Below are positions 4,977 through 55,400 of a DNA stretch of 64,000 nt, in pieces. Location: the NCBI GenBank assembly GCA_965243205.1, contig CBDEUK010000002.1, positions 320,001 to 384,000 of the forward strand, written 5' to 3'. The translations under genes were made by a program, and so were the position numbers. The notes beneath the pieces are model-generated. The model worked only from the letters and a program-made list of their open reading frames with translations. It searched no databases and was not told the DNA's origin. Position 1 is the first letter of the stretch. Every line of letters begins with the position of its first letter. The DNA is from Gammaproteobacteria bacterium (lineage in GTDB: Bacteria > Pseudomonadota > Gammaproteobacteria > Eutrophobiales > Eutrophobiaceae).

Positions 4977-4987
4977 GAGCATAAACC

Positions 4988-5179
4988 ATGGCTGTACAAC
5001 AAAATAAGAAATCGAGTTCACGTCGCGATATGCGTCGTTCACATGATTCATTAAAGGCTACTACATTATCAATTGAGCCAGAATCTGGTGAAACCCATCG
5101 TCGTCATCATATCAGTGCAGATGGTTATTATCGTGGTCGTCAAGTTATTCAAACTCAGGTTGATGACGACGAAGAATAA
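4988..5179 (+). CDS. rpmF: 50S ribosomal protein L32
   Basis: [20 protein letters not shown]...HRRHH...YRGR; Cys-less (C-) form. Confidence 0.97.
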
Positions 5180-11569: not shown

Positions 11570-12574
11570 ATGAAAAAGATTTTTGGCTATGTTTTTTTAA
11601 TTTTTATTATTGCTGCAATCATTGGTGCGTATTATCTATGGCAAGATAAACAACAATATCTTGCATCTCCTATAAACTTATCCGAAAAAATCAATTTTGA
11701 AATTGAATCTGGTAGTAATTTAAAAGATGTATTAAATGAATTAGCCGAAAAAAATATTATATCAAAACCTGAGTACATTCTATTTGAAGCTAAAAGAAGT
11801 AATCAAGCAAACTTAATTAAAGCGGGTGAATATCAATTATTACCTGGCACCACGCCAACACAACTAATTCAACAATTTATCGATGGTAAAGTTGTTCAAT
11901 ATAGAATTACTTTGATTGATGGCTGGAATTATCGCCAAGTATTTGAAGCGGTAAAAAATCATAAACGATTGAAACAAACAATCGATGAATTATCAGTTAA
12001 AGAAATAATGGAAAAACTTGAGCTAGAAGGTGTGCATCCTGAAGGTCAATTCTATCCAGATACATATAGTTTTCCGAACGGCACAAGTGATATCGATTTT
12101 TTAAAACGAGCTAACAAACGTTTGCATAAAGTGCTCGAAGAAGAGTGGCAACAAAAAGCAGAAAATTTGCCTTATCAATCAGCTTACGAAGCGTTGATAA
12201 TGGCTTCTATCATTGAAAAAGAAACGGCTGCTTCTGAAGAACGTCCTGAGATAGCAGGAGTGTTTGTGCGGCGTTTATTAAAAGATATGAAATTACAAAC
12301 TGATCCTACTGTTATTTATGCGATAGGAGAAAGTTTCGATGGCGATATACGTAAAAAAGATCTTTCTATTGATTCACCTTACAATACTTATGTGTATAAA
12401 GGTTTGCCGCCAACACCGATCTCAATTGCAGGCCGTGCTGCAATTAATGCAGCATTACATCCAAATGATGGAAAAACATTGTTTTTTGTTTCTATGGGAA
12501 ATGGCAAACATTATTTTTCTGAAACCTTGAAAGAGCATAACCAAGCAGTACGAAAATATATCTTAAAGAAATAA
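11570..12574 (+). CDS. mltG: Endolytic transglycosylase MltG
   Basis: ASIIEKET, LQTDPTVIY, SPYNTY...GLPPTPI. Confidence 0.95.
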   Translation: MKKIFGYVFLIFIIAAIIGAYYLWQDKQQYLASPINLSEKINFEIESGSNLKDVLNELAEKNIISKPEYILFEAKRSNQANLIKAGEYQLLPGTTPTQLIQQFIDGKVVQYRITLIDGWNYRQVFEAVKNHKRLKQTIDELSVKEIMEKLELEGVHPEGQFYPDTYSFPNGTSDIDFLKRANKRLHKVLEEEWQQKAENLPYQSAYEALIMASIIEKETAASEERPEIAGVFVRRLLKDMKLQTDPTVIYAIGESFDGDIRKKDLSIDSPYNTYVYKGLPPTPISIAGRAAINAALHPNDGKTLFFVSMGNGKHYFSETLKEHNQAVRKYILKK

Positions 12575-19003: not shown

Positions 19004-19096
19004 TTTGTAGCTCAGAAGTTATTACTAAAAATATTTTTTCTCTAAAGTTTATCGGCAAAAAATCTCAATAATTAAGCTAATAATGCCATATTATTA

Positions 19097-19124
19097 TTAT
19101 CGCATAATGTATATTATGTTAAAT
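19097..19124 (+). other. dif: dif site (XerC/XerD), now attL of the prophage
   Basis: TTATCGCATAA-TGTATA-TTATGTTAAAT; 24/28 identical to E. coli dif GGTGCGCATAATGTATATTATGTTAAAT. Confidence 0.92.
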
Positions 19125-19235
19125 TAATTATGTCATTGATTTTTATGTACTACTTATGGGTAATTGTAAAAACAACCCCTTTTCCGTCTAATTGTTTAGT
19201 ACGCCTGCGATAATTACAAAAAGAAGGAATTACTA

Positions 19236-19604
19236 ATGACCAGCATTATTGAGGACGCGGCATGGTACGCAGACGACAAATATTTTTATTGGGATAGCAA
19301 TTATAACCTTGAAACCATCCCCGAATTGGTGGCAAAACACCCCAAAACGATAAAACGATGGCATGAAAACAACGCTTGGCCTCTCTGGGCGAAGCGATTG
19401 ATTGCATCATACAGTGGTTATTATTTGCACCCCGGCTGGCATGGATGGCGGCTCAATCCAAGAGATTTCAAACTGTACCCGCCCGGGTTACGACATGGGT
19501 TCACAGCGCCAGAAATTGAAGGACTGGATTTTATCCGGCAAAACTTGGGGAATATTCGGCACTCTGAAATGAAGCCGAAGCAATACGAATTATTGTTTAC
19601 TTAG
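19236..19604 (+). CDS. DUF3653-like phage HTH protein
   Basis: HTH-like KTIKRW then W-x-G-W...L-x-P-P-G pattern as in filamentous-phage DUF3653 proteins; AAGGA RBS; follows the repressor in the circular form. Confidence 0.6.
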   Translation: MTSIIEDAAWYADDKYFYWDSNYNLETIPELVAKHPKTIKRWHENNAWPLWAKRLIASYSGYYLHPGWHGWRLNPRDFKLYPPGLRHGFTAPEIEGLDFIRQNLGNIRHSEMKPKQYELLFT

Positions 19605-20001
19605 GTTTAGTATTTACAACGTCGTTCTTTTTTATATGTAGATAAACTCTGTCACCAAACAAAAAGAAAAACGCGCTAGAGCCTATATTTAAAGTACTTT
19701 GAGCGTGTGGTGAGTTCATAACAACAAGTACAAACGCCATCAGTAAAATTAAAAATGTGGCGATGTAACGAGACGACTCGCGTAAATCAGTGACCCATTG
19801 CGATGCCTTGCCCGACGGTTTGTCGATGTCGGCTAAGGCTTTTAATCGCTCGGTTTCCGCATTCATTAACTGAATCGTTTCTTCAACGTTTTGCGGACGA
19901 CCACCGGCTGAGCCTGTGACCTTAGCAACTACACCTCTTATAGTATCGACAACAGCAGGAACTAAACTTGGTAAAACAGTTGTTGCTAATATTTCAATCA
20001 T
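19597..20001 (-). CDS. Putative holin (3TM-holin-like)
   Basis: Last gene of late operon; W..LR.SSR followed by two hydrophobic segments ending FFLFGDR and a basic tail. Confidence 0.55.
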   Translation of the reverse strand: MIEILATTVLPSLVPAVVDTIRGVVAKVTGSAGGRPQNVEETIQLMNAETERLKALADIDKPSGKASQWVTDLRESSRYIATFLILLMAFVLVVMNSPHAQSTLNIGSSAFFFLFGDRVYLHIKKNDVVNTKPK

Positions 20002-20194
20002 GATTTGAGCCTGTATTTATAGGGTTTTCTTGCGTTAGTTCACTTTCTAAATTAATCACACGTTTGGTTAACTTACTGACTTTATCTGCTACGTCATTGA
20101 TGCGTTGTTCATTGCGATAGATAAGATAAATAATCAACGCCGATGAAAAGTCACCACCAGCCGATAACAGTTTCAATAATTCATCTAAGGGCAT
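19994..20194 (-). CDS. Small TM plus coiled-coil protein (lysis accessory?)
   Basis: 66 aa, overlaps both neighbours, one hydrophobic segment then heptad pattern. Confidence 0.55.
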   Translation of the reverse strand: MPLDELLKLLSAGGDFSSALIIYLIYRNEQRINDVADKVSKLTKRVINLESELTQENPINTGSNHD

Positions 20195-20535
20195 GTTGTA
20201 CAGCGAACCGAACCATCAAGACCGAACAACGGGTCATCAGGACAACGACAGCCTCGGTCAATCACAATTTCAAAGCTACCCGGCGCACCGCCGCCATCTT
20301 TACCGCCAACACTCGCAATGCCAAAATCTTTAAAAAAATCATCGAATACACTGCCACTAGTAAAACCATCACCATCAGCCCCGACGAACGTACTACTTGC
20401 ATCACTCGGTGAAACACTGCCGAAAGATCCCAAATTTAGCCCAGATAAGGACTTCCCGGACTTCCACCACCACAACAGGCCGCCAATCACGATGCCTGAC
20501 AAGATCATTTTTTTCGTATTAGAATCGTTTTTCAT
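20185..20535 (-). CDS. Virion membrane protein with Cys-rich C-terminus
   Basis: N-terminal TM (ILSGIVIGGLLWWW), Gly/Ser-rich middle, CRC...CTTC; ATGA overlap with upstream gene. Confidence 0.6.
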   Translation of the reverse strand: MKNDSNTKKMILSGIVIGGLLWWWKSGKSLSGLNLGSFGSVSPSDASSTFVGADGDGFTSGSVFDDFFKDFGIASVGGKDGGGAPGSFEIVIDRGCRCPDDPLFGLDGSVRCTTCP

Positions 20536-21251
20536 GCCCTACCCGCTACTTGGTCTATAAAACCCCAATCAATGGCCGCATAAAACTGACCGCCGCCCGG
20601 TTGATTACGTCCCATCCAGTTCGCAACACGACCGCCCTTTCGTGGCCGTCCATCAATGTGCATACCGGGGCGCGGTTTCCAGTCGGGATACACACCGATA
20701 CCACCAATCGCCGACACTTCAACGGCTGCGTTGTACGCTTCGCGCAAACTACTCTCAGGAAATATATCAATCGCATCGGACAAACGACCGACCGCATAAT
20801 GACGTGAATTTTTCGAACCGGTTAATCGAAACAATGCACCGGGCGCGGGTGAAATTCGAATCGGTTTACCTAAGCGATGCCGCATATCATCCAACGCATG
20901 AATGATGCGCGGGTCAATGTGTTTTAGATTTTCATTACCGCCAAATTCAGCCGGCGTGAAATATCGAATCTTGTCCCAATCAACGGATTGAGTTTGGTCA
21001 ACGATGGGGAATTCATTTACAGTTTCCAATTCAGCCTCCCGATTGCCTGCGGTATTCGATACAGTGGGAAAAGTAAAAACGGTGTCACTGTCGAACGAAC
21101 CAAGTTTGAAAAAATCCAAAAAATCATCGTCCAGAAATCCACCATCAAGAAGACCATCCGCGAGTGGATTAGATTTGCCTTGAGCCTGTCGAGCATAAAG
21201 AACACCTCCGACAATCGTCGCGGCCGCTAAAAGTTTACCCGCCCGACTCAT
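20532..21251 (-). CDS. Membrane-anchored peptidase M15 (peptidoglycan hydrolase), at the PM2 P5 position
   Basis: N-terminal TM; YFTPAEF, SRH...DAIDI, MHIDGR Zn-peptidase motifs. Confidence 0.8.
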   Translation of the reverse strand: MSRAGKLLAAATIVGGVLYARQAQGKSNPLADGLLDGGFLDDDFLDFFKLGSFDSDTVFTFPTVSNTAGNREAELETVNEFPIVDQTQSVDWDKIRYFTPAEFGGNENLKHIDPRIIHALDDMRHRLGKPIRISPAPGALFRLTGSKNSRHYAVGRLSDAIDIFPESSLREAYNAAVEVSAIGGIGVYPDWKPRPGMHIDGRPRKGGRVANWMGRNQPGGGQFYAAIDWGFIDQVAGRA

Positions 21252-21600
21252 TGTTCAATGATGCTATGTAATCGTTTAACTGCTGATGAAATTGAGCCTC
21301 GGTAATTTCTTTGTTACCGAGTTTTTTATTCAAGTCATCCGATTTAATCCGTATCTTTTCAGCATTCGCCAGTCGCAACGTTTCTTGTTCTTGCTTCTGT
21401 TGAGCTGTCATAAAAATTAAATCATCGTCGGTCACGTTATCGTTTAAGAACGTGCAACAGGTTTTAAAATCGGCTAATACATCGTTCATTGCCTGCTCAA
21501 AATTCTTTCCACCTGTCGCTAGCATTTGCAGATAAACCAAACCTTGAAGCTTGCGCGCACGCGACGATGTATTACTCGGATTAGTTCCAAACTGTTTCAT
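21235..21600 (-). CDS. Hypothetical phage protein
   Basis: Likely start MKQFGTN at 21600 after GAGG; overlaps downstream peptidase start. Confidence 0.55.
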   Translation of the reverse strand: MKQFGTNPSNTSSRARKLQGLVYLQMLATGGKNFEQAMNDVLADFKTCCTFLNDNVTDDDLIFMTAQQKQEQETLRLANAEKIRIKSDDLNKKLGNKEITEAQFHQQLNDYIASLNNESGG

Positions 21601-21602
21601 GA

Positions 21603-22277
21603 TTAAAGTACCTCGTAGATGAGTGAATAACGTCCCCAACTGGTATTCGTTTGGTTGTAATAAATCCCGTTTCCTGCAGGAACAATGAACATCGGCTCCT
21701 TGTGGTCATGACGACCGGCCGAGACCATCAACAACGTGCAGGCATTACCATCATCGAATCCCGCTGGCGTGGTGGCTTTGTACATAATTCGCATTAATGG
21801 CGAAATGGAGACCATATCGATAGAGTAAACTTTTATACCGTTGACATTCGTAGCTGGCGGCACGATGGTAAACATGCTGGTATTGTTGAGTGCGTTATGC
21901 GCCGAAAGGGTATTCGATAAATCAATATCGCTGCTAATTTTCAGTGGAAAATCTTCGTTCTGTTCCATTAACACCGCATCATCTCTAATGCGTGACTCGC
22001 CATTCACAGACCAAAACTCAATGGTTAATGTTTTACCTGGCTGCGCTTCATTGGCTAGCCATAGCTTGGTGGTCGGCCACTTCTCAAACCGACGACCGTT
22101 AAAAATATCAACCGGCACATTTTCAGTTGAATTAAATCGTAACGTTGCCTTAGCACCGGGCGATGATGAACGGATTCGTAACTCGTTACACTGAACGTTT
22201 AATTCAAACAGTGAACGCGCAACCGATAAATCAATATCGATTTTACGAATCGGTAATAAGTCGAATTTATTACTCAT
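21603..22277 (-). CDS. Penton/spike-like protein, paralog 2
   Basis: Beta-rich; clearly homologous to 22277-22999; PM2 P1 position. Confidence 0.6.
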   Translation of the reverse strand: MSNKFDLLPIRKIDIDLSVARSLFELNVQCNELRIRSSSPGAKATLRFNSTENVPVDIFNGRRFEKWPTTKLWLANEAQPGKTLTIEFWSVNGESRIRDDAVLMEQNEDFPLKISSDIDLSNTLSAHNALNNTSMFTIVPPATNVNGIKVYSIDMVSISPLMRIMYKATTPAGFDDGNACTLLMVSAGRHDHKEPMFIVPAGNGIYYNQTNTSWGRYSLIYEVL

Positions 22278-22999
22278 TAGAGCACCTCATATTCCAACGC
22301 CACCCACGAGTTGGCATTGGCATTTTGTTGAACGTAAATACCCAAACCGGCAGGAATAATAATCACCCTTTCTAAATTTCCTGTTGTTCCACCCACGACC
22401 ATCATCAACGTGTGCGCCGCTGTATCGGTGTACGAACTCGGAGCAGAACTTTTCGCCATAAATCGCATCGATGCACTACTGGCCGCACTGGCTAACAAGA
22501 CCTTAATGCCATTCACATTTGTTGCTGGTGGCACGATGGTTTGTAAGTTGTTGTTAACAAGTTCGAAAAAATATTGACTCACCATCGTCGGCGGTGTTGG
22601 TGGGTCAGTAATACCTTGAATTTGCGGGTCTACGGGAAACTCTATATTTACAGGGTCAGCGTCATCGATTTTCACTAAGCCAACAATCTGAGCGACCAAC
22701 GCATCGTCTTCGATTTGCGTATCACCGACAGCCGTCCAGTATTCAATCGTTAATTCCGCGCCTGCTTGAGCATCGTTATCAATAAAAATTTTTCTAGTGG
22801 GCCAATTGGTAAACCGTCGCCCGTTAAAAATATCAATCGGTTTGTTTTGTGTTTGATTGAATCGAATTTTCGCTAAGGCATTCGCGCTGTTGGACGACAC
22901 ACGTATTTGATTACAGCTAAAAGTCAGCTCTTCTAAATTACGAGCGACTGATAAATCGAGTGATATTTTACGAACGGGCAACCCGTCAAAGTTGCTCAT
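22277..22999 (-). CDS. Penton/spike-like protein, paralog 1
   Basis: Beta-rich N domain, Pro-rich linker (DPPTPPT), beta-rich C domain; PM2 P1 position. Confidence 0.6.
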   Translation of the reverse strand: MSNFDGLPVRKISLDLSVARNLEELTFSCNQIRVSSNSANALAKIRFNQTQNKPIDIFNGRRFTNWPTRKIFIDNDAQAGAELTIEYWTAVGDTQIEDDALVAQIVGLVKIDDADPVNIEFPVDPQIQGITDPPTPPTMVSQYFFELVNNNLQTIVPPATNVNGIKVLLASAASSASMRFMAKSSAPSSYTDTAAHTLMMVVGGTTGNLERVIIIPAGLGIYVQQNANANSWVALEYEVL

Positions 23000-23454
23000 T
23001 TCTTACGGCCCTTTTTACGGTTAAACCAAAAGTACGCCATCGCACCGAGACCCAGTTGAACTTCGGGCTTTGATAAATTATCAGCGAGTTTTCGGAACGT
23101 CTCTTGACCTGACTCAACGATTTCACCGACCGTTGTTGTGAGTGCAGCAGTAGCCCCACTCGTTCGAGCAAAGTCCTGTGATACCTGTTCAAGTGCATCG
23201 CCGGCCGGCTCTAGAATTTGTTGTATATCCTCGCCCTGTAACCCTTGATTGGTAATTTCAAACGTTAAATCCGAATCGGGTGAGCCTGAGACTTTAATCG
23301 CGGTCGCGCTCGGTTTGTCGGCAACGACTGACCCTTCCGAGGTGTCATTAATCGTTCGTGTGTTCGTGGTGCTGTTACTGGACGACGAGGATTTCGAACC
23401 GCCACCGCGATACCCTGCAAACGGTAATAGTTTATTTTGAATTCGAGTAATCAT
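22996..23454 (-). CDS. PM2 P10-like virion membrane protein
   Basis: GGGSKSSSSSNSTTNT near N-terminus, C-terminal TM plus basic tail; position before spike. Confidence 0.6.
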   Translation of the reverse strand: MITRIQNKLLPFAGYRGGGSKSSSSSNSTTNTRTINDTSEGSVVADKPSATAIKVSGSPDSDLTFEITNQGLQGEDIQQILEPAGDALEQVSQDFARTSGATAALTTTVGEIVESGQETFRKLADNLSKPEVQLGLGAMAYFWFNRKKGRKK

Positions 23455-23891
23455 CGTTTATCTATCTGTTTAAGCATCACCAATTCACCCGGGACAAATC
23501 CATTTTCCAAATAGGTTTTAATCAGGCCCGGTCGCTTCACATGAGCGCGAACTCTGCTACACCCTTTTATCTGCCCGATTTCTTCAAGCAACGGTAAAAA
23601 CTCCATCATGAAACGCAACTCGCCAAAGTTACCGCCTACGGCGACAACAACACATTCCAGTCCGTCATATCTCAGTACGCAGCAACCGAAATCCGTCTCG
23701 CCATCCGTTGCGTGGTATAACTCACAATGACCGTTCATGACATCTCGCGCGCAATCTTCAATGCCGTAAATTTCATCCCACTCAACCGGCTCACACCATT
23801 GTCGAGCGGTGTAATTCCATTGGGTTTTTACGAGCTTGAGCGCCTTTTTTTCAGTAGTGTTTTCGCTATCATGTACCCGCCTATCAGCCAT
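23451..23891 (-). CDS. GNAT-like phage protein
   Basis: VLRYDGLECVVVAVGG...GCSRVRAHVKRPGL...GF pattern typical of degenerate GNAT folds. Confidence 0.55.
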   Translation of the reverse strand: MADRRVHDSENTTEKKALKLVKTQWNYTARQWCEPVEWDEIYGIEDCARDVMNGHCELYHATDGETDFGCCVLRYDGLECVVVAVGGNFGELRFMMEFLPLLEEIGQIKGCSRVRAHVKRPGLIKTYLENGFVPGELVMLKQIDKR

Positions 23892-24094
23892 AGTGCCTGC
23901 TCCGTAAATCGTTCTTTAAATGGCTCTCTTGTAGCCCCAATCGTCACATTGACCGAGGACGTATTCCCTTCAGATAACGCGGTCGATGGCGCAGCATCAC
24001 CGCCCAAAATACCTTCGAATGGACTTTTTCCATCGCCAACAAACGGCACGCCCGAGCCACCTGACACCCCGGACAACGCACTAAAAAAACCCAT
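23828..24094 (-). CDS. PM2 P8-like virion membrane protein
   Basis: Gly/Ser-rich, C-terminal TM and KKRR tail; syntenic with P8. Confidence 0.6.
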   Translation of the reverse strand: MGFFSALSGVSGGSGVPFVGDGKSPFEGILGGDAAPSTALSEGNTSSVNVTIGATREPFKERFTEQALWLIGGYMIAKTLLKKRRSSS

Positions 24095-24252
24095 TAATCA
24101 AATACCTCGTTCACCAACATGCCGGCCGCAAAACCGACAGCGGCTAATAAATACGGCTGGTCAGTAACGGCGGCTTTGGCTTTTTCAACCGTTCCGCGTG
24201 ACTGAAAACCGGTGTAAAGACTGGCTGCGCCGACAATTAGTAACAGCGGCAT
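24094..24252 (-). CDS. 52-aa membrane protein at the PM2 P4 position (not in ORF track)
   Basis: MPLLLIVGAASLYTGFQSRGTVEKAKAAVTDQPYLLAAVGFAAGMLVNEVFD; TGATG and TAATG couplings at both ends. Confidence 0.7.
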   Translation of the reverse strand: MPLLLIVGAASLYTGFQSRGTVEKAKAAVTDQPYLLAAVGFAAGMLVNEVFD

Positions 24253-24530
24253 CAATCGTCATCCATCACCATCAAAAACAAGAACGCGACCGCTCCATAG
24301 AGCAATGCATCGTTGTTTGAATTGGTGGTTTGTTGTGGGGCTGACTGAGTGACAAAAACCGTTTCCGGCCCCGGTGCGTGCAACGTGTCAAACGGTTGCG
24401 GCGCGCCGAGTTTTTCACGGATTTTAAACCCTAAGCCCTCGGTTACTGCTGGCTTGATACCTTCCAGTACATCACCAAACCAGCCCGAGACTCCCGGGCC
24501 AGTTGGTACGAATGAATCGAACGCGTTCAT
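24252..24530 (-). CDS. PM2 P3-like virion membrane protein
   Basis: Directly after MCP, GAGG RBS, C-terminal TM (LLYGAVAFLFLMV). Confidence 0.65.
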   Translation of the reverse strand: MNAFDSFVPTGPGVSGWFGDVLEGIKPAVTEGLGFKIREKLGAPQPFDTLHAPGPETVFVTQSAPQQTTNSNNDALLYGAVAFLFLMVMDDD

Positions 24531-24566
24531 AACATTACCTCGCTAATTAACGTATTTTGGTAATGA

Positions 24567-25544
24567 TTAAATACGGTCTGAAGAACCGCCGATAATCTCT
24601 TGTACGATAATCTCCGCTTGGTGATTCGCGCCGCCGTTCACATCCATGAACAGGTCGTATGCTGCGACCTCGGATAACTCGTGACCATGACCCGGCATCG
24701 AGCGCGGTGCTAAATCGATGAAGTACACACCCGTCCGAGGCGTTGCGATTTCATGGTTCATTGAATAACGAGCCTGATTCATTGCGCCCGTTTCCTTGAA
24801 TCGGACTTCTGAATCGGTCTCAACAATCAAGCTGTTGATGATGTCGTTCGCACGAACACCGTTGTCACGAGCAATGACCATTGCCGACATCACCATGCGA
24901 TTTTCGCCTGACAATAAGTCGACTTTTAATCGGTCATTGGTGTTGTTGATGTTGACTAAAATGGTACGTTCACGATGCAACGCGTAGTTGTTTTGTAAAC
25001 TGTTATTACGCACTAAGTCATGACTCATGACTTCAATGGTCGGCTCGACAGTCCAACTTAAAACAGTTGTTCCCGCTGGCGTTACTAAGTCGCTCGCATC
25101 GCCCCAATCCACGTTTAGAGTAAAACTGGTTACTCCGCCCTCGCGTGTCGCATCAAGCAATGTTGCATCTTGAGCGGCTCCGGCTTCAGGCATCCACAAC
25201 GGGATAGAGAAATACGCCTCAAATGGACGGTCACCTGTCGCAGTTCCCGGCGCGACGTTGTACGGCACAACACGGCCGCGACGAATATTTAATTCTTTGA
25301 GCGCCTTACCCGATAACGTTTTGACTGGTACGTTACCGTTGACCATGATTTCTAAATTTTTAATCAAGCTGAACGGCGCGTCTTCCAATACTGCGGTTGC
25401 CGCCGCCGTACCGATATTTAACGTACCTGATAATCGACAGTGAATTTCACGATACACGCGACCTTCATGCAGATTGATAAAACCCTGTGCATTTTGAGCG
25501 TAATTCAAAATGTCTTGAGAACGACGATAAGCAGTAATACCCAT
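24567..25544 (-). CDS. Major capsid protein, predicted double jelly-roll
   Basis: 325 aa of alternating beta strands in two halves (IKNLEIMVNG...; INSLIVETD...VYFIDL); between ATPase/P7-like and P3-like genes; GAGGG RBS. Confidence 0.78.
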   Translation of the reverse strand: MGITAYRRSQDILNYAQNAQGFINLHEGRVYREIHCRLSGTLNIGTAAATAVLEDAPFSLIKNLEIMVNGNVPVKTLSGKALKELNIRRGRVVPYNVAPGTATGDRPFEAYFSIPLWMPEAGAAQDATLLDATREGGVTSFTLNVDWGDASDLVTPAGTTVLSWTVEPTIEVMSHDLVRNNSLQNNYALHRERTILVNINNTNDRLKVDLLSGENRMVMSAMVIARDNGVRANDIINSLIVETDSEVRFKETGAMNQARYSMNHEIATPRTGVYFIDLAPRSMPGHGHELSEVAAYDLFMDVNGGANHQAEIIVQEIIGGSSDRI

Positions 25545-25569
25545 GATAAACCCTCTAAAAGTTAATAAT

Positions 25570-25593
25570 AAAAAACCGGGTAGGAACCCGGTT
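25570..25593 (-). terminator. Terminator-like hairpin between P7-like gene and MCP
   Basis: Minus strand AACCGGGT-tcct-ACCCGGTT followed by TTTT and ATTATT. Confidence 0.55.
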
Positions 25594-25599
25594 CATTCA

Positions 25600-25719
25600 C
25601 TAGCCGTTAACAATGCGGCGCAGTGGTGGCACTCGATTGATGATTGCTAATGTGATGGCAGTCATTACAACGCCGTTAACGATTTGATTAGCAGTCGGCA
25701 ATTTCACACTTGTAGCCAT
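25600..25719 (-). CDS. PM2 P7-like 39-aa membrane protein (not in ORF track)
   Basis: MATSVKLPTANQIVNGVVMTAITLAIINRVPPLRRIVNG; GGGAG RBS; pattern hydrophobic-N(R/K)V..LR as in PM2 P7; between ATPase and MCP. Confidence 0.75.
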   Translation of the reverse strand: MATSVKLPTANQIVNGVVMTAITLAIINRVPPLRRIVNG

Positions 25720-25815
25720 GAGTCGGTCTCCCGTTCGTTAAAAAAAATTACACGGCAATCATGGTCGTTACATAACCTCATTCAAGTGCTATTACGTATA
25801 CGTAAAAAGAAATTT

Positions 25816-26454
25816 TTACGGGCCTTTTAATTCGGCTTTTTGCATGCCATCGCCAAAGAAAAAGTACTGGTACGGCTGTAGTTCAACCAACTCTTTTGCC
25901 GTAACACCGGGCAAGGTTTTCGCGATGCGATTGGCATCCTCTTCGTACGTAAGACCGAATGACGTTATGTGCGATGCGTTCGATAAAAAGGTTTTATCAA
26001 CACCCGTCGGACGCTGTGATGTCCCCATGATAATCAAGCCATGTTGACGGCCAGTTGATACTAACTTTTCCCATTCAGGAATGGCGTAACCCGGCTCACT
26101 TACCATCTGAATTTCTTCAACGACACACATCAATGGGCCGCCATGTTTAGCGACTTCGTACGCGGTATCGCAAAAGACACCGAATTGCATTAAACGATGT
26201 TTTTGGCTGGCTTGGTTCGGGCGAAAGGCTTTACTGAACGGCTTGTCATACACGCTCGTTAAGTGACTGACCAATTTATCGCAACTGTCCGTCGAATCTA
26301 AATCGAACTCATGTTTGAAATCCCACACCATCAACCGAGTCGGCTTTAGTTCAGCGATGTCGTTTAATAGTTTGGTGGTTTTACCCATGCCGGTGCGACC
26401 GAAGTACGCCCGGACATTGGCTTTATGGATGTTATTATTTACGTTTACTTGCAT
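25816..26454 (-). CDS. FtsK/HerA-type (PM2 P9/A32-like) genome packaging ATPase
   Basis: Walker A GRTGMGKT, WD, Walker B VVEE, GRQHG, SQRP; likely start MQVNVNNN at 26454 after GGAG. Confidence 0.88.
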   Translation of the reverse strand: MQVNVNNNIHKANVRAYFGRTGMGKTTKLLNDIAELKPTRLMVWDFKHEFDLDSTDSCDKLVSHLTSVYDKPFSKAFRPNQASQKHRLMQFGVFCDTAYEVAKHGGPLMCVVEEIQMVSEPGYAIPEWEKLVSTGRQHGLIIMGTSQRPTGVDKTFLSNASHITSFGLTYEEDANRIAKTLPGVTAKELVELQPYQYFFFGDGMQKAELKGP

Positions 26455-27091
26455 GTGTACTTTTCTCCGCTTCCGCCCATGATGGTGCGTTAATCTCCGC
26501 CTCTTTGAATGCGGCTGGTTTTTCAGATTGTTGACTGGAATTGCTCTCGACTGGCTGACCATCTTCAGGCCATAGCACGGTTACTGTTGCTAGTAACAGT
26601 GGCCCAAAAAATAACGCGGCCGACATTTCATCGGATACTTTGCTGAGTGATTGAGCACTGTTACCGAATAAGGCTTTGAAATACGGCTTTTCCATGATGG
26701 GCGCTAATTTACTCGCACCCTCTTGGATGATGTCCGGCGTATAGATAGCCGCCATTTGTGGGTACTGCATCGACAGCGCAGCCACGACCGTTTCTATCAA
26801 TACCTTTGCGGCTTTACGGTTTTCTTCGAGTGCATCCTCTGGCGTGATGACCGTACCTTCAAGACCCGGTACACCACCGCCCTCTTGATTCGATTCAACC
26901 TGTGCCGCTCTCGCTTTTAAGTTTGCGAACGGGTCAGCGGTTCCACCATGTCCCGGTTCGGTCGAGCTCTGACTCGTCGTTTGGTTCTGGCTCTGGTTCT
27001 GGGTCTGACTCTGGCTCTGTTGGCTCGACCGGGTCGAGGTTTTCTTCTTCGATTTCTTCTTCGTGACTTTCGTCTGGGTCTGGTTTTCCAT
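26435..27091 (-). CDS. Phage membrane protein upstream of ATPase
   Basis: 218 aa with hydrophobic C-terminal segment (AALFFGPLLLATVTVLW); long 5' overlap with upstream gene, start uncertain. Confidence 0.6.
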   Translation of the reverse strand: MENQTQTKVTKKKSKKKTSTRSSQQSQSQTQNQSQNQTTSQSSTEPGHGGTADPFANLKARAAQVESNQEGGGVPGLEGTVITPEDALEENRKAAKVLIETVVAALSMQYPQMAAIYTPDIIQEGASKLAPIMEKPYFKALFGNSAQSLSKVSDEMSAALFFGPLLLATVTVLWPEDGQPVESNSSQQSEKPAAFKEAEINAPSWAEAEKSTHASKRK

Positions 27092-27275
27092 CGTCTATAG
27101 GTCTCATACGTTGTCGGATTAATTGGTCGGATTTATTGGAACGGGCGAAGTGCTGAGAGCCACACGCGCCGCATGTATACGTGGCCCACTTACGTTTTGA
27201 CGATTGCTTTACGATGCATTCCGCGCCACAGTTAGGGCAATCGATTCGCCCGATGACATTCGTCGGCTCAGTCAT
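26934..27275 (-). CDS. Zinc-ribbon transcription factor, PM2 P14-like
   Basis: CPNC...CGAC, acidic Pro-rich tail; GAGG RBS; follows rep and P13-position gene. Confidence 0.7.
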   Translation of the reverse strand: MTEPTNVIGRIDCPNCGAECIVKQSSKRKWATYTCGACGSQHFARSNKSDQLIRQRMRPIDDGKPDPDESHEEEIEEENLDPVEPTEPESDPEPEPEPNDESELDRTGTWWNR

Positions 27276-27426
27276 TTTTAAGCACCTCTCTGAGTAGTAT
27301 TACCAGCTCCAACATCAACGGAATCGCACGTTGTTGAGCAAACAACATGCGGGAACCTACCGATTCATTGGCTTTGGTTAATTCGGCTTGAATAGCCTGT
27401 AATTGTTGGTCGATATCAGGGTTCAA
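27268..27426 (-). CDS. 52-aa protein at the PM2 P13 position (not in ORF track)
   Basis: GGAGG RBS, TTG start overlapping rep stop; [52 protein letters not shown]. Confidence 0.65.
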
Positions 27427-29027
27427 AGTGTTACCTCCGGCGGGGGTTGTGATAATTCGTGAAAATTTACGGGGGTAGCGGGTAATTCCCGCGTACAGTT
27501 ATTGACAGGACTCCAAGGGGCGTTTTGTTTTGAATCTCGTACAACACGCCACTCATGGAGTCTGGTTAAGATCACGTCAATGTTATCGGTCACGCCGTAA
27601 ACGATGTCACCTATCGGCTCACCATAACGACCCGGTTCGTCCGACCATGATTTACATACGTGAATTTTCAGATTTTTACGTTGTGTAACAGGGCCACCTT
27701 GTGCACGTACGTAATCAGCCCAGTTACCCACATCAGCGGCATAGCGTACGCGTTCAATCGATTCGGAATCGACTTCGTTACGTAAACGACGAAGTTCACG
27801 CCACACCCCAACAGGTGGGCCGCCGATTTGCTGGAACTGTCGTATACCCCACGCACTCGCCCACGCTCGGACGAGTGCAGCGGCTTTTATGTCAGCATCT
27901 TCGAGGCCTTCCCCGTCGATGTTCTTTGAAATGTACTTTGCAATGTAGGCGGTCGCCGACCCTTTGGACGGGTCGATTTCCTCAATTTTTAATCGGTGCT
28001 CTTTGGCCCCGGGTTCGTTTGGGGTGTCCTTAATGGCATGATGGAATAGAACGTCTTGAACGTCGGCACGTTGTTCATTAGGCATGAATAGCAACATATG
28101 CCAGTGGGGGCAGCCATCGTGATGCGGCTCAGCGATTCTAAATCCGAAAACTGGTAAGCCTTGACGATGTAACTTTGCTCGGACTCGCGACCACACACCG
28201 CACAGATATTGCTGTGAGTCTCGTGGTGTTGCGCCGTTGTAGTTCGGGTTTTCATTTCCTGTTTTCGATAGCCTTGCATGAAACCGTGACGGACACGTTA
28301 ACGTATAAAAATCGGCAACGTATCCCATGTCATTCGCTATTGTTTCAAACCCAGATAATCGACACATCAATTCGTTACGTCTTAGTGCCGGGTTCGATAC
28401 TGATAGCTCCTGCAACTCTGACAACGTGTATTCCTGACCGCTGTCATTGATTGCTATCATAGACTCTAAAAACGCTTTATTCCTTTGTATCGCTAATTGA
28501 ACTCGCTCAACTGTGCCATGACTCACATACTTGCTAGCCTTACAATGCACCATGCCGTTATCAATCGCGGCCGACTCTTGCCGTCTGGTTAAATCTTTTC
28601 GTAACTTACGTGTCCACCAATCAATGCATCGAAGCCGCGCCAATCTCGCATCCATTGGCAGGGTATCGCGAGGCGGTTGAATACCTGAACGCAACGCCAC
28701 CTGTTCACAGCTGCTAATATCATTACCGTACAACTTCACGCGCCCCACTCTATCGACAGCGAACGCACGCACGTCATCGTCCTTTGAATCAAGCCCTAAA
28801 CGGTCGCTTGCATAATTCGTTTCAATGTCTAAGAGGTAATGATTCGCTTTTTGTGACGAGACACTTTCATGTATTTTTTTATACGTTCCAGCGATAACAT
28901 CGCGTAAATCATCGGCTAATTTTGTGAAGATACGTCGACGAAATAACTTGTTGTCACGACCGACCCTATCATCTGGAAAACCCGCAAATATTAGCGGGTC
29001 ATCGATTAACAGCTCGGCTCTAGCCAT
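27423..29027 (-). CDS. Rolling-circle replication initiator, phage P2 GpA family (HUH endonuclease)
   Basis: [59 protein letters not shown]. Confidence 0.92.
27495..27521 (-). other. P2-type replication origin (nick site) inside rep 3' end
   Basis: Minus strand GCCCCTTGGAGTCCTGTCAATAACTGT closely matches the P2 ori GCGCCTCG^GAGTCCTGTCAATAACTGT. Confidence 0.75.
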
Positions 29028-29176
29028 ACGACTTCATCGCCTTCAACTTCGGTAATTTCCAATTCATCGGCATTCACATCACAAAGAAAATGCTCAACGA
29101 TTAACGGTGAATCGAGCCGCTCAGGACACAAGTCAATGACTCGGTCGAGGGCCGACCTAAACTCACGCAACGTCAT
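29006..29176 (-). CDS. 56-aa acidic hypothetical early protein (not in ORF track)
   Basis: [56 protein letters not shown]; overlaps both neighbours. Confidence 0.5.
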
Positions 29177-29357
29177 CCATCACCTCGAACACCTCGTCCA
29201 CTCGCTCAACTGTCATGCGATGGTAGTTACCTTGGATACCGAATAAAGTGGGTTGAAATACGACTATGGAAATGGGTTTGATATGGTCTCGGATACCGAC
29301 AATCATCGCCGTCATTAACGGCTCTGTTCGGCCCTTCAATCGTGTGCCTACGTGCAT
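29163..29357 (-). CDS. Hypothetical first early protein
   Basis: 64 aa, GAGGA RBS, first gene of the leftward operon. Confidence 0.55.
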   Translation of the reverse strand: MHVGTRLKGRTEPLMTAMIVGIRDHIKPISIVVFQPTLFGIQGNYHRMTVERVDEVFEVMDDVA

Positions 29358-29511
29358 CGAAATTTCCTCATATTGATTAATTTTTTATCGGAACTCGAAA
29401 CAAGGAGGAGGCCCGAGAGCTAATCGGGCCAAAAATTTCGATGTTCCAGCAATACCAGATAAGCGGAGATTTTGGGGAATCAGCACAACATCTAGTGGTT
29501 GCTGGAAAAAC

Positions 29512-29540
29512 AGAATAGCTAAGTCACGCTTAACTAGCAA
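29512..29540 (-). promoter_or_regulatory. Predicted sigma70 promoter of the phage early (rep) operon
   Basis: Minus strand TTGCTA, 17 bp, TATTCT; overlapped by two palindromic operator-like boxes. Confidence 0.55.
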
Positions 29541-29615
29541 GTCTGACTTGAACTTCAATTGCTTACAAACATCAATTACACTTGACTATAACAACAATTA
29601 AGGGGAATCAGCACA

Positions 29616-29993
29616 ATGAACACAATTGAAACATTGGACGCCATAAGTCGTTGTAATAACAACTGTACTGACTACAGAATTGCAAAAATGATGGGTGTTT
29701 CCACCTCTAGGGTCTCTAACTGGCGAAATGGCAAGAATTCTATGGATGATGAAGCCCGAATCGCCGCCGCAAAGTTACTAAACCAAGACCCAGAAACACA
29801 ACTAGTTTATGGACAGATGGAACGGACAAAATGTCCAGAGGTGAAGTCCGCATGGATGAATTTAATCGAACGTTCAAAGGTCGCCGGTTTCATTCTAGCC
29901 CTATTTTTAACCTTTGGAATGACATTCACTAATTTTGAAGGTGCAACGGTTGCAGCAGCAGAAAGCGCGAACGGTGTATATTATGTTAAATAA
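29616..29993 (+). CDS. HTH repressor, DUF3693-like, with TM segment; 3' end overlaps attR
   Basis: TDYRIAKMMGVSTSRVSNWRNGK HTH; hydrophobic VAGFILALFLTFGMTF; divergent from early operon; last codons GVYYVK are the att core. Confidence 0.8.
   Translation: MNTIETLDAISRCNNNCTDYRIAKMMGVSTSRVSNWRNGKNSMDDEARIAAAKLLNQDPETQLVYGQMERTKCPEVKSAWMNLIERSKVAGFILALFLTFGMTFTNFEGATVAAAESANGVYYVK
29964..29991 (+). other. attR: dif-like site with degenerate XerC arm
   Basis: AGCGCGAACGG-TGTATA-TTATGTTAAAT. Confidence 0.85.
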
Positions 29994-52412: not shown

Positions 52413-55400
52413 TCATGGCACCATCCCCTCAAACGTTGTCTGGTTCCACACGGTCCCATCATTAAACTCTATCCTATCTATCGCGTGCGGCTTATCGCTG
52501 CCATCGAAACTGTAATAGTATTCAATTTTTATCGAATCGCCGTTGGTGTGATGTAAGTACATATGGTCGATGTCACGAGTGAAACTGATATCACTTGGAT
52601 TGATGCCGACACCAAAGCGGAAGATATCCACAGTGTGGTATTGCCATTCTGTATTGCTCACAACGTCTGAGCCCCAACCCACATCAAAGTGATAAATGTC
52701 ATTACCATCACCACCACTTAATGTATCGTTCCCAGTGTTACCTATCACGACATCATCGCCGTTGTAAGCATAGATGGTGTCATTGCCGGCAAGGCCATCC
52801 AAGGTATCGGCGTGGGATGAGCCGGCTATCATCGCATCATCACCGGTTGTCGTAACGGCCATGAAGCCTTCGAACGTCGCTTTATCCCACACCGTGCTAT
52901 CAGCAAACTCAATGCGGTCAATGGCGTGCGGTTCATCCGTTCCATCCAAATTAAAATGGTAGCGAACTTCGATTGAATCACCGTTGGTATGCGCGATATA
53001 TAAATGCTCTTCATCACGTGTAAAGGTGATGTCGCTTGGATTAATACCGGTACCAAAGCGTATGATGTCGGTTGTGTGATATTGCCACTCGGTATTTTGG
53101 ATAATGTCCGTGCCCCAACCGGTATCAAAGTGATAAGTATCATTGCCATCACCACCGGCTAAGGTATCGTTACCATCACCGCCGATGAGTGTGTCATCAC
53201 CATTGTAAGCTTCAATCGTGTCATTGCCGGCAAGGCCATTCAAGGTATCGGCGTGAGAGGTTCCGGCGATCATCGTATCATCACCCGTTGTGGCAACAGC
53301 CATAAAGTCTTCAAACGTCGCTTTATCCCAGACCGTACCATCGTCAAACTCAATGACATCAATGGCGTGTGGCTCATCCGTTCCATCCAAATTAAAATGA
53401 TACTGAACTTCAATCGAATCACCGTTGGTGTGAGTGATGTGTAAATGCTCTTCATCACGTGTGATGGTAATGTCATTTGGATTAATGCCCGTACTAAAAC
53501 GGATGGTGTCCACAGTATCGTAGTGCCACTCGGTATTCTGAATAATGTCCGTGCCCCAACCGCTATCAAACACGTACAAATCATTGCCATAACTTCCTAT
53601 CAAGGTGTCATCACCCGGACCACCGTTTAAGAGATCATCACCATCATAGCCATTGAGTACATCGTTACCGGCCAAACCATTTAAGGTATCAGAGTGTGAC
53701 CCGCCTTCTAAGGTATCATGACCAATCGTTGCAATAGCCAACATGCCTTCAAACGTACTCTTATCCCATACCGTGCCATCGTCAAACTCTATGATATGGA
53801 TCGCATACGGTTCATCCCCCGTATCAACAATAAAATGATAAGACACCCGAATGCTATCGCCATTACTGTGCGTCAGGTATAGATGCTCATCATCACGGCT
53901 CACCGTAATGTCGCTTGGACTAATGCCACTGCCAAATCGAATGGTCTCCACATTGTTAACGCTCCACTCTTCATTGTTCACAATGTCAGACCCCCAACCG
54001 ATTTCAAACAAGTACACATCATTCCCAGCACCTGCGTTCAACGTATCATTGCCCGCACCGCCGTTCACCACATCATCACCCGCTGTACCGTCCAAAGTAT
54101 CATTGCCACTGGTACCTACCACGGTGCCAGAGCCGGTGCTTGCATTTGTAACCGTCACCGTAATTGTTGCATCGCTGCTTAAACCACCACTGTCCGTCGC
54201 ACTCGCCGTAATGGTATGCGTACCAATACTCAACACCGTATTGTTAAAGTTACCCGTACCTATCGCACCATCGATACTGGAAGTCCAATTAAGCGATGGG
54301 CCAAGATTGCCATCCTCAACATCGTTGGCAGTGCCAATGAAGATCATACTCGAACCTTGAACCACACTGGCCCCGGAGCTTGGGATAGTGATGTTCACTG
54401 TGGGTGCTGTATTCGTTACATCATTTACATCGGTGACGATAACCCGGACCAATTGCGAGGTTAATTCAACCCCATCGCTTGCTTCTAACAATACATTATA
54501 TTCGTTGTCCCCTTCCGTATCCGTTGGCGTTTCAAAGTCAGGGGCTGTGGCAAAACTTAAATTGCCACTCGCATCGATGCTAAAAGCATCATGGTCAGTA
54601 GAGAATTCTTCATGCACTGTAGAATCACTGATACGAAAACTCACTGCAGCCGATTCTGGATCCGTGGCCGCCAATGCCATCACGCTCATGGTGTTCTCTG
54701 GAATGCTGACGGCACTTGCACTGCTGATCACCGGCCCATCGTTCACACCATGAATGGTGATGGTAACTGATGAGTTGGAAGTTAACCCTTCGTCATCCGA
54801 CATCGTGTAACCAACCACCACTTCGGCGGTTTGTCCGGCAAGTAAGGCATCAAAATCAGTGCCTGGATCGAATTTTAGATAGCGACCACCCTCGATGGAA
54901 ACCGTGCCCTGACCATTACCATTCACATGAGTGTGGGCATCCAACGAGAACGTCTCCACCGTATCCTCTGCATTGGGATCTGTATCATTGGCCAACACAT
55001 CAATGTACAACGGCACTTCCTCTCCAGGACGGTAGATGCGCATGGCAACGCCGGAACGATCATCATCCCCTGTCGCAGGATCCCAACTGTCCCATAGGAA
55101 TGCAACGTCACCGTTTTCAAGTTGTTTCATATACGGTCGTTCTTGATAACTTGTACCATGTATATTGATTTTCTCTATCTCGCCAATCAAGTCACCATTA
55201 TTATCGTATCTGACAGCCGATATCTCAGAACCCGCAGCGGCCGCCATGAATCCTCCACTGGATAAAGCAAGCAGTGCAGGATCACGACCGTTACTTATGA
55301 CAAAAGGGGTATCAATATTATTGTAGGTTGACCCATCAAGGAGTTGTGCTTCAATTCTTCCGAATTGTTCGCCATGTGCAGGATCTAGATTTATATGATT

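Follow-up and report, generated by a model that had tools for sequence, protein, structure and literature searches.

The regulator gene at 29616–29993 of the window, the 64,000-nucleotide stretch of gammaproteobacterial DNA analysed here, runs into the attR site of the 10.9-kb prophage of a tailless, PM2-like phage with a double jelly-roll (DJR) capsid located at dif. In our preferred reading, to which we assign a probability of roughly 0.55, the exchange of the regulator tail that accompanies integration at this locus is a tolerated by-product, and the firmer signal of the integration state is the splitting of the operon in which the regulator is followed by a P15/XafT-like gene.

Prophage structure and integration at dif

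The prophage spans 19108–29991, with a unit of 10,867 bp, and is delimited by exact copies of a 17-nt core, TGTATATTATGTTAAAT, at 19108–19124 and 29975–29991. When up to one mismatch was allowed, the core gave only two matches in the genome of 2,793,537 bases, and the reversed control pattern gave none. Both att sites are located at the cumulative GC-skew maximum of their contig, and the DNA between them has a GC content of 0.45–0.50, compared to 0.33–0.37 in the flanks. The attL site (19097–19124, plus strand) is a full 28-bp dif-like site in which an XerC arm of host type (TTATCGCATAA) is followed by the central TGTATA and an XerD arm (TTATGTTAAAT), and its last 17 nt are the core that it has in common with attR. 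The attR site (29964–29991, plus strand) carries the same TGTATA and XerD arm, while the XerC-arm position is occupied by a phage-derived, non-dif 11-mer, AGCGCGAACGG, which makes up the regulator codons E-S-A-N-G.

No integrase or recombinase family was matched among the 20 element proteins scanned, a set that excludes some ORFs shorter than 100 aa. Six XerC/XerD-family matches were found genome-wide, all of them outside the 339–350 kb interval of the contig, with XerD of the host at 404 bits and its XerC at 364.5 bits, each above its cut-off. The element thus has two direct dif-like repeats at the chromosomal dif/terminus, with a full dif-like site as attL, and since it is placed at dif and lacks a recombinase of its own, it is by its sequence features an IMEX, predicted to depend on the XerC and XerD of the host for both integration and excision. 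This agrees with the XerCD-driven integration put forward in the preliminary description of the locus. In public contigs from two runs of the likely source sample, only the integrated form was present.

The remaining genes place the element with PM2. The major capsid protein (24567–25544, minus strand, 325 aa) is predicted to have a double jelly-roll fold: its AF2 model, built on a 70-row alignment (pLDDT 94.8, pTM 0.91), retrieved PRD1 P3 (E 3e-19, TM 0.77), the STIV MCP (TM 0.78) and PM2 P2 (E 1e-16) in Foldseek. Relatives of this protein were found in one of 401 class-level genomes, namely the source genome itself, and in none of the phage records or viral contigs. The packaging ATPase (25816–26562, minus strand, 248 aa) is of the PM2 P9 type, with a match to phrog_2666 (E 7e-22) and a tblastn match to PM2 positions 4687–5085 (26.6% identity, E 1e-13). 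Similarly, the rolling-circle replication (RCR) initiator, Rep (27423–29027, minus strand, 534 aa), is of the GPA/PM2 P12 type (PF05840, E 1.8e-88; phrog_91, E 8.9e-174), and is 37.5% identical to PM2 P12 (E 2e-79). Two assignments are weaker: a zinc-ribbon protein (26934–27275, minus strand, 113 aa) with weak Pfam matches (best E 2.6e-5), which occupies the position of PM2 P13/P14, and a putative lysis enzyme (20532–21251, minus strand, 239 aa) with weak matches to Peptidase_M15 (PF08291, E 0.031) and the endolysin family phrog_894 (E 0.0039).

The gene order is that of PM2, including a co-oriented pair of terminal genes at the two prophage ends, one P16-like (BLASTP to PM2 P16, E 6e-6) and one P15-like (BLASTP to PM2 gp a/P15, E 8e-4, 27% over 83 aa), for which the similarity is weak and synteny weighs much. 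The element is therefore a PM2-like, dif-type DJR prophage (Vinavirales), which provides a clean, intact example from outside the catalogued Vibrio set of such prophages.

A divergent control region (29358–29615) separates the early/replication operon from the regulator and contains a 20-nt direct repeat (29469–29488 and 29597–29616, 18/20 identical) whose second copy adjoins the regulator ATG. At 29512–29540, where a promoter had been claimed, no sigma-70-like site was found; the promoter scans gave site counts no higher than in shuffles, and the promoters of the control region were not located by them.

Prophage and circle forms of the regulator

The regulator (29616–29993, plus strand, 125 aa), the terminal gene on the right side of the prophage, is P16/RstR-like, with a putative N-terminal HTH, a helix with the conserved pattern ER..PE.K..W and, at residues 89–107, a hydrophobic segment. 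Residues 1–118 match phrog_638 (E 5e-19). In Pfam, neither HTH_3 (19.9 bits, cut-off 23) nor DUF3693 (14.2 bits, cut-off 21) reaches the required score. The relatives K04M1 and vB_Vipa4291, which align to the regulator along its full length, reach 72 bits with DUF3693, and the end of that model coincides with the residues encoded by the att site.

The 17-bp attP covers the last six codons of the gene. In the prophage, the reading frame passes through the attR core, giving the C-terminus NGVYYVK, and ends at a TAA (29991–29993) of which the T is the last base of the core and both A's are host DNA. When 29616–29991 was joined in silico to 19125 onward, as in the excised circle, the frame stayed open for 29 further codons, LIMSLIFMYYLWVIVKTTPFPSNCLVRLR, ending at a TAA at 19211–19213, 22 nt ahead of the next gene, for a product of 154 aa. 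Because the regulator gene contains the attP core, it encodes 125 aa in the prophage and 154 aa in the circle, and integration replaces the 29-residue tail of the regulator by an immediate stop. The preliminary description had made these same claims, that is, a stop codon completed by host bases, an extension to 19211–19213 and two product lengths, and each was confirmed from the sequence and the in silico join. For annotation, the locus is a reminder that in prophages of this kind host DNA determines where the terminal regulator ends.

The tail is encoded by an AT-rich stretch just past attP (19125–19213, plus strand), which, read from the final core base at 19124 (the first base of the first tail codon), makes up the 29 codons and the TAA in the regulator frame, and which has a GC content of 0.31, compared to 0.42 for the regulator gene. 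Shuffles of the segment remained open for at least 29 codons in 7.5% of cases, or 10% when a slightly different segment was used, and the open frame thus exceeds chance only weakly (P about 0.08–0.10). The best 15-residue hydropathy window of the tail, 2.37, was equalled in 5.7% of the shuffles that stayed open and in 1.9% of a host-DNA set of 429 short open stretches. For an open and hydrophobic tail jointly, the shuffles give 0.075 x 0.057, or about 0.004, by a criterion that was set post hoc. Of the second TM-like segment described earlier, the hydrophobic run was recovered; at 15 residues, flanked by two lysines, the run is short for a membrane span.

Downstream of the tail, and terminal on the left side of the prophage, lies a P15/XafT-like gene (19236–19604, plus strand) encoding a 122-aa protein, a candidate Xer activation factor. 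Its ATG at 19236 is preceded by AGAAGGA at 19222–19228, which bears out the proposal that the extension ends just before a ribosome-binding site. The DUF3653 likeness claimed for the gene was not recovered in Pfam, where its product had no match, DUF3653 included, at E values up to 10; PM2 P15 itself carries DUF3653 as its RefSeq name and matches the Pfam model with E 2.5e-4, its 21.6 bits lying just below the cut-off of 22.4. The protein did match phrog_1668 (E 4e-6), whereas its similarity to the downstream ORF of K04M1 (E 0.014) is too weak for use; it had no match in the phage records, and a complex prediction with host XerD, at scores of 0.00 in two runs, gave no verdict. The place of the gene next to dif is in agreement with the accounts given in parts of PMC6744903 and PMC12715192.

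Given this overlap of attP with the six final regulator codons, recombination carries whatever lies past the crossover to the opposite prophage end. On integration, the XafT-like gene is consequently separated from the transcription unit of the regulator, and its expression may change with it. Conversely, as the preliminary description anticipated, excision would rejoin the two genes as one co-oriented unit, which is the p16–p15 operon arrangement described for PM2 in passages of PMC12715192. The regulator, attP and the XafT/P15-like gene would then form a lysogeny module that is split by integration, and in our reading operon splitting is a more robust signal of the integration state than the tail swap.

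Relatives and the meaning of the tail exchange

In all eight dif-type inovirus records examined (RSS30, RSS20, K04M1, Vf33, Vaf1, vB_Vipa4291, PQ189320 and PQ189335), taken from 62 phage records with a match, the regulator ORF contains a dif-like arm. Judged by these sequences, an attP in the 3' end is typical of a regulator family of dif-integrating phages that combines an HTH, a hydrophobic helix and att-encoded residues. Close relatives of the regulator were scarce: four of 18 candidates, the query included, reached E ≤ 1e-3 in a regulator protein search, and homologues occurred in three of 61 related genomes, the source genome among them. The closest homologue (P0002) has 130 aa and lies on a 10,044-bp contig; a viral-contig search with it and a genome-contig search with an alignment (A1) both returned nothing. 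The metagenome contigs L008 and L009, both short, carry a relative of the regulator and no recognisable dif.

The relatives differ in where the regulator stops. In PM2 P16 and the relatives L057 and L070, the stop lies 40–85 nt ahead of the att site, and in the V. cyclitrophicus inovirus prophages PQ189320 and PQ189335 a TAA falls within the XerD arm. By these stops, the refuting condition of the preliminary description (relatives with a stop within or right after the core in both states) is partly borne out. The open free-form tails, of 24–36 codons, have no sequence in common between groups. A second hydrophobic segment past the att-encoded residues is present in this element, L080, L104, Vf33 and Vaf1 (the regulator sequence of Vaf1 being identical to that of Vf33), and also in P0003, which may be a free or an integrated form; it is absent from RSS30, RSS20 and K04M1, and the RSS and K04M1 tails are hydrophilic. 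Between L080 and L104, 101 of 138 body residues (73%) are identical against 6 of 30 (20%) in the tail, body and tail being separated by a 33-nt island with 30/33 identical positions. The att site of this pair is inferred only from that conserved island, and scanning L074, L078 and L080 with a dif consensus gave no site. The expectation of a conserved open and hydrophobic extension is therefore not supported, as the free-form tails of relatives vary in length, sequence and hydrophobicity.

As the tail past the core is not conserved, our reading is that the phage tolerates the tail swap as a by-product of attP placement, which is the most likely interpretation of these sequences, rather than as a switch. 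A switch would require that the tail swap act as a sensor of the integration state, the forms with two and with one hydrophobic segment differing in topology or stability, so that XerCD would set immunity in an analogue of the BPs system. We consider such a functional switch improbable, though it is the best placed of the alternatives. It draws on the position of attP inside the regulator gene, on the rarity of open and hydrophobic tails in shuffles, and on the second hydrophobic segments in the free forms of the window element, L080, L104, Vf33 and Vaf1; moreover, the charges of the tail (a lysine, the 15 hydrophobic residues and then KTTPFPSNCLVRLR) would fit a cytoplasmic C-terminus. A precedent exists in BPs (PMC4557955), and for RSS0 ORF13 the same idea has been proposed. 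Against this stand the stops ahead of attP in PM2, L057 and L070, which are of the same virus type, those within the XerD arm of two inovirus prophages, the hydrophilic tails of the RSS phages and K04M1, and the divergence of the tail relative to the body in L080 and L104. The run is, in addition, only 15 residues long, hydrophobic codons are favoured by T-rich DNA, and a C-terminus resembling a degradation tag is not evident.

The broader proposition that, in dif-integrating phages with the long regulator (HTH plus hydrophobic helix), the 3'-end attP is a selected device, in which the often hydrophobic free-form tail would alter membrane topology or turnover, or couple translation to the Xer activator, and XerCD recombination would yield a short, stable immunity form, appears equally improbable. 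If the tail swap were functional, phages that use XerCD would have a built-in sensing of integration, a question that was raised for RSS0 in 2013.

Slightly less probable still is an explanation in which translation of the tail itself matters, read-through in the circle coupling to the start of the XafT-like gene or preventing termination or polarity, so that the Xer activator would be co-produced with the regulator only before integration. The succession of the stop at 19211–19213, AGAAGGA at 19222–19228 and the ATG at 19236 would suit this, as would the finding that the regulator frame ends near the downstream gene start in all free forms examined, from an overlap in Vf33/Vaf1 to gaps of about 40 and 57 nt ahead of the XafT-like start in L080 and L104, respectively; tails that evolve fast and yet stay open would also be accounted for. 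However, across six free forms the open frame does not reach significance (Fisher's combined P, 0.058), PM2, L057 and L070 do without read-through, and in L080 a hairpin lies between stop and start. Translational coupling over 22–57 nt is weak, which counts further against this explanation.

Finally, that 19131–19213 is a separate gene for a 27-aa hydrophobic peptide, sharing the regulator frame by a one-in-three coincidence, is very unlikely: it has an in-frame ATG at 19131 and recalls the PM2 ORFs b and b*, annotated across attP between p16 and p15 (in both peptides PFP precedes a Cys and L/V residues, and CCTTTTCC is common to the two DNAs), but a purine-rich ribosome-binding stretch is absent ahead of that ATG, PM2 ORF b is only hypothetical, the similarity spans few residues, and no such ORF was found in L057 or L070.

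Comparison with known systems

The C-terminal exchange would not be a new kind of switch, as layout and hypothesis alike are already in print for ORF13 of the Ralstonia phage RSS0: passages of Yamada 2013 (PMC3816273) describe a regulator gene whose 3' end holds attP, a shortening from 156 to 130 aa on integration, and a possible functional difference between the two forms. The window regulator matches ORF13 of RSS20, RSS30 and RSS-TH1 with about 30% identity (E 1e-4). The two systems, as far as these passages describe RSS0, agree in having homologous regulators, an attP at the gene 3' end, a XerC-to-XerD reading direction, use of host XerCD at dif and a product that is shortened on integration, from 154 to 125 aa in the present case. 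They differ in that RSS0 is a filamentous ssDNA phage and the present element a dsDNA DJR phage, in that the RSS tail is basic and hydrophilic whereas the tail here is hydrophobic, and in the frame in which the core is read; the examined part of the RSS records contains no XafT-like gene after the regulator.

Integration-dependent immunity in mycobacteriophage BPs, as outlined in parts of PMC4557955, likewise involves an attP inside the repressor gene, which is also found here. In both cases, the C-terminus of the repressor differs between the prophage and the free phage, but BPs uses its own tyrosine integrase, whereas the present element encodes no recognised integrase and would rely on a host recombinase. 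In BPs, a degradation signal is reportedly present on the viral form of the repressor, and a difference between the two forms is said to have been demonstrated; a degradation tag is not evident here.

For the downstream gene, the closest known system is XafT of TLC-phi, described in sections of Midonet 2019 (PMC6744903) as a DUF3653 Xer activation factor. Those sections show two further likenesses, a small DUF3653-type gene adjoining dif in an IMEX and an attP with one poor arm. Unlike XafT, the 122-aa protein has neither a Pfam DUF3653 match nor an N-terminal HTH match, and it resembles PM2 P15 only.

With PM2 and the dif-type Vibrio prophages, the element shares the capsid fold, the gene order, the RCR Rep, the ATPase, the terminal gene pair and the lack of an integrase, and the PM2 attP is of the same 17-bp type, comprising the XerD arm and the central region. 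The P16/RstR–attP–P15/XafT module and the terminal gene pair of dif-type DJR prophages are described in parts of Ma & Zhang 2025 (PMC12715192), who curated 258 DJR and 515 inovirus prophages and in the main text of whose paper the strings 'truncat' and 'stop codon' are absent. Both components of the present locus, the module with its terminal gene pair (Ma & Zhang 2025) and the regulator shortened at attP (Yamada 2013), are thus already published, to judge from these portions of the two papers.

The regulator itself sets the element apart from PM2. Neither PM2 P16 (92 aa) nor the P16-like protein of V. cyclitrophicus (87 aa) has the hydrophobic helix, and both stop short of attP, whereas the regulator here is the long, inovirus-type form that overlaps attP. 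A DJR phage can therefore be served by the long inovirus-type regulator as well as by the short P16 type, and the presence of this long form in such a phage is further evidence that the regulator–attP–XafT module moves between two virus realms.

A PM2-like element without its own recombinase

The element (19108-29991; unit length 10,867 bp) carries only minus-strand genes between its two terminal plus-strand genes. A 534-aa protein matched GPA-type rolling-circle initiators (PF05840, E 1.8e-88; phrog_91, E 8.9e-174) and a 248-aa protein a packaging-ATPase PHROG (E 7e-22). A 325-aa protein matched no family, but 259 relatives were found for it in the representative library at E<=1e-3; its AlphaFold2 model (pLDDT 94.8, pTM 0.91; alignment of the query with 69 of the 150 relatives listed) resembled PRD1 P3 (E 3e-19, TM 0.77), the STIV MCP (TM 0.78) and PM2 P2 (E 1e-16) in Foldseek, which places the predicted fold among double jelly-roll capsid proteins. 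PM2 has the same gene order, with Rep 37.5% (E 2e-79) and the ATPase 26.6% (E 1e-13) identical. None of the 20 element proteins scanned matched a recombinase family, and all six XerC/XerD-family matches found genome-wide are outside the element, with host XerD at 404 bits and host XerC at 364.5 bits, both above curated cut-offs. The element is therefore a PM2-like, host-Xer-dependent prophage (an IMEX, a mobile element that integrates by exploiting Xer); the absence of an element-encoded recombinase and the kinship with PM2 and inovirus regulators are established, as are the layout of the att sites and both coding outcomes. Adjacent ORFs at 21603-22277 and 22277-22999 (-) encode paralogues of 224 and 240 aa with common motifs such as IVPPATNVNGIKV; no family matched except weakly phrog_31751 (E 9e-4), and, judging by position, they may be vertex or spike proteins.

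A full 28-bp dif-like site lies at attL (19097-19124: TTATCGCATAA, TGTATA, TTATGTTAAAT); at attR, the XerC-arm position is occupied by AGCGCGAACGG, within regulator coding sequence. On contig C2, the cumulative GC skew reaches its maximum at approximately 340-370 kb, which puts these dif sites at the terminus; the window spans C2:320,001-384,000. GC content is 0.45-0.50 between the att sites versus 0.33-0.37 outside, the flanking host genes encode a PAS-GGDEF-EAL protein and a sigma-54 activator, and public contigs showed the integrated form only, with neither a circle junction nor an empty site. Elsewhere in the window, a single 3365-aa ORF (52413-62510, -) matches RTX calcium-binding repeats, HCBP_related, bacterial Ig/cadherin, LRR and, weakly, RHS/DUF6531, which gives it the appearance of a giant adhesin or toxin-like protein that is secreted; its 3' end, encoding the C-terminal third (~52-56 kb), has a GC content of 0.45-0.46 versus ~0.30-0.35 around it.

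Two coding outcomes at the att core

The preliminary description held that the regulator gene reads through the att core and that the excised circle encodes a longer protein, and this observation is real. The regulator ORF (29616-29993, +) encodes 125 aa ending in NGVYYVK. The core, TGTATATTATGTTAAAT, is present in exact copies at 19108-19124 and 29975-29991, the only two in the 2,793,537-base genome at <=1 mismatch (reversed control pattern, 0). The first base of the stop codon TAA (29991-29993) is the last T of the right core, and the other two lie beyond the repeat. When 29616-29991 was joined in silico to 19125 onward, the frame stayed open for 29 codons to a TAA at 19211-19213, giving 154 aa and ending, as described, just before the ribosome-binding site of the next plus-strand gene (AGAAGGA, 19222-19228; ATG, 19236). 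A 14-nt inverted repeat (19091-19104 / 19206-19219, 86% complementary) is also found here, the host XerC-arm TTATCGCA reappearing inverted as TGCGATAA exactly at the tail-frame stop, which may be chance.

The regulator matched phrog_638 (transcriptional regulator) over residues 1-118 (E 5e-19), scored below the Pfam cut-offs for HTH_3 (19.9 bits, cut-off 23) and DUF3693 (14.2 bits, cut-off 21), and was similar to PM2 P16 over the HTH region (E 6e-6). The 122-aa protein encoded at the opposite end of the element (19236-19604, +) had no Pfam match and resembled PM2 gp a/P15 (E 8e-4, 27% over 83 aa), which RefSeq labels DUF3653 and which scores 21.6 bits against the DUF3653 model. This domain is that of the TLC-phi Xer activation factor XafT, which binds XerD, drives integration and excision, and has homologues clustering beside dif (PMC6744903). 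Ma & Zhang describe a module of P16/RstR repressor, dif-like attP and P15/XafT in PM2, in 'dif-type' Vibrio double jelly-roll prophages, where the two genes form the fixed ends, and in one class of Vibrio inoviruses (PMC12715192). In the divergent control region, a 20-nt direct repeat (29469-29488 / 29597-29616, 18/20 identical, core GGGGAATCAGCACAA) has its second copy ending at the regulator start codon, so it could serve as an operator. The same region has a perfect inverted repeat of 11 nt (29355-29365 / 29433-29443). Promoter scans of the element did not locate promoters.

The tail in relatives and against chance

A tblastn search with the regulator matched 62 of 50,697 phage records (Vibrio 28, Burkholderia 21, Ralstonia 11, Villovirus 2). 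Twelve of these were examined, and in all eight dif-type inoviruses among them a dif-like arm lies within the last part of the regulator ORF; the other four (two P2-like Burkholderia phages and two Vibrio double jelly-roll elements) had no dif-like arm in it. In PQ189320 and PQ189335, two prophage records ending at the regulator CDS, the stop TAA falls within the XerD arm. The free or contiguous forms of RSS30, RSS20, K04M1, Vf33 and Vaf1 stay open for 24-36 codons past the core; the ORF of vB_Vipa4291 stops a few codons past the central region. In K04M1 (323-805) and vB_Vipa4291 (1489-1857), the 60-position DUF3693 model ends at regulator residue 119, and the codons of its last residues, C-A-L-C, belong to the XerC arm of the dif-like attP, so that the family has its C-terminal boundary at the recombination site. 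No paper turned up in a full-text search for DUF3693. PQ189335, a V. cyclitrophicus filamentous prophage with a P2 GPA-type Rep, has its divergent regulator, small ORFs and Rep arranged like the right end of the window's element, and inoviruses and this phage may share a replication/regulation block beyond the lysogeny module alone.

Among viral contigs, 80 of 136 Rep matches were kept: 74 loci had Rep only, two Rep and ATPase, and four (L057, L070, L074, L080) also a regulator homologue. The regulator stops ~60 nt before a dif-like site in L057 and ~35 nt before an oppositely oriented one in L070, whose other site is followed by a DUF3653-like ORF. The L057 site is part of an exact direct repeat of 101 nt (1-101 / 12005-12105, spacing 12,004 nt), which points to a tandem array of IMEX truncated at the contig end. 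L080 is circular (149-nt terminal repeat, 10,242-nt spacing), its 168-aa regulator being followed directly by an XafT-like gene, and the related contig L104, from a betaproteobacterial MAG, has the same layout. Their regulators agree at 101/138 positions in the body and 6/30 in the tail past a 33-nt island, which is itself 30/33 identical versus 35/60 nt before and 19/60 after, a pattern that fits an att core with little-constrained sequence behind it. This island, unlike canonical dif and with flanks 32-58% identical between phages, recurs in the regulator ORFs of betaproteobacterial PM2-like genomes of ~10.2-10.8 kb (L080, ~5960-5992; L078; L104), for which it may represent the att core. Most differences between the L078 and L080 regulators fall in the HTH half, and from codon 122 onward the two are nucleotide-identical.

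A hydrophobic segment at approximately residues 88-108 occurs in most long-type regulators and is missing from short P16 proteins. Several forms have a second such segment past the att-encoded residues: the form reconstructed for the window, L080, L104, Vf33 and Vaf1 (identical to Vf33 in its regulator sequence), as well as the homologue P0003, either a free form or a prophage. RSS30, RSS20 and K04M1 lack it. Shuffles kept the window's tail frame open as long as observed in 7.5% or 10% of cases (two runs), and its best 15-residue hydropathy window was reached by 5.7% of open shuffles and 1.9% of 429 short open stretches of host DNA. Open-frame probabilities for six free forms were 0.10, 0.53, 0.036, 0.13, 0.35 and 0.41 (Fisher's combined P 0.058; 0.067 for the four less related). 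Evidence that the tail is under selection is therefore no more than suggestive, and the poor conservation of the tail and the low GC content of its DNA (0.31 versus 0.42 for the regulator gene) weigh against it.

A proposed state-dependent operon and its precedents

We favour, at a probability of roughly 55%, the reading that the position of attP entails a tail swap which is tolerated, and that the operon split is the meaningful state-dependent change. The regulator would, by analogy with P16/RstR, repress the divergent early operon. The attP, whose XerD arm is good and whose XerC arm is poor, and the P15/XafT-like gene together suggest integration by a XafT-type, XerD-first route. Integration would detach the XafT-like gene from the transcription unit of the regulator; a plus-strand scan upstream of the 122-aa gene found no sigma-70-like site, which is weak evidence for this. 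A true protein-level switch, in which the two C-termini differ in function, seems unlikely: some relatives share the second hydrophobic segment, but the comparison with relatives, judged from sequence, leans against a conserved switch. Slightly less probable still is that read-through is needed for coupling to the XafT-like gene; the 29-codon tail does lead up to that gene, but PM2 has no such read-through, its attP (of this same type, central region and XerD arm) being located 85 nt downstream of where P16 stops. A separate small gene comparable to ORF b of PM2 is very improbable. What the tail swap does is experimentally tractable.

Excision does reunite the two plus-strand genes, as had been proposed, since PM2 carries its 17-bp attP between p15 and p16, with p16-p15 as one operon (PMC12715192); this reunion is already known for the PM2-like virus group. 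The main text of that paper contains neither 'truncat' nor 'stop codon'. In the Ralstonia filamentous phage RSS0, attP (dif) occupies the 3' end of ORF13, a new stop arising on integration by XerCD cuts ORF13 from 156 to 130 aa, and the two forms were proposed to differ possibly in function (Yamada 2013, PMC3816273). An attP overlapping the regulator gene is a family trait already in print. Of the original interpretation, the coding change and the operon reunion stand, while the novelty claimed for an integration-dependent repressor C-terminus falls, because RSS0 has the same layout and hypothesis and the module has been described for PM2-like prophages.
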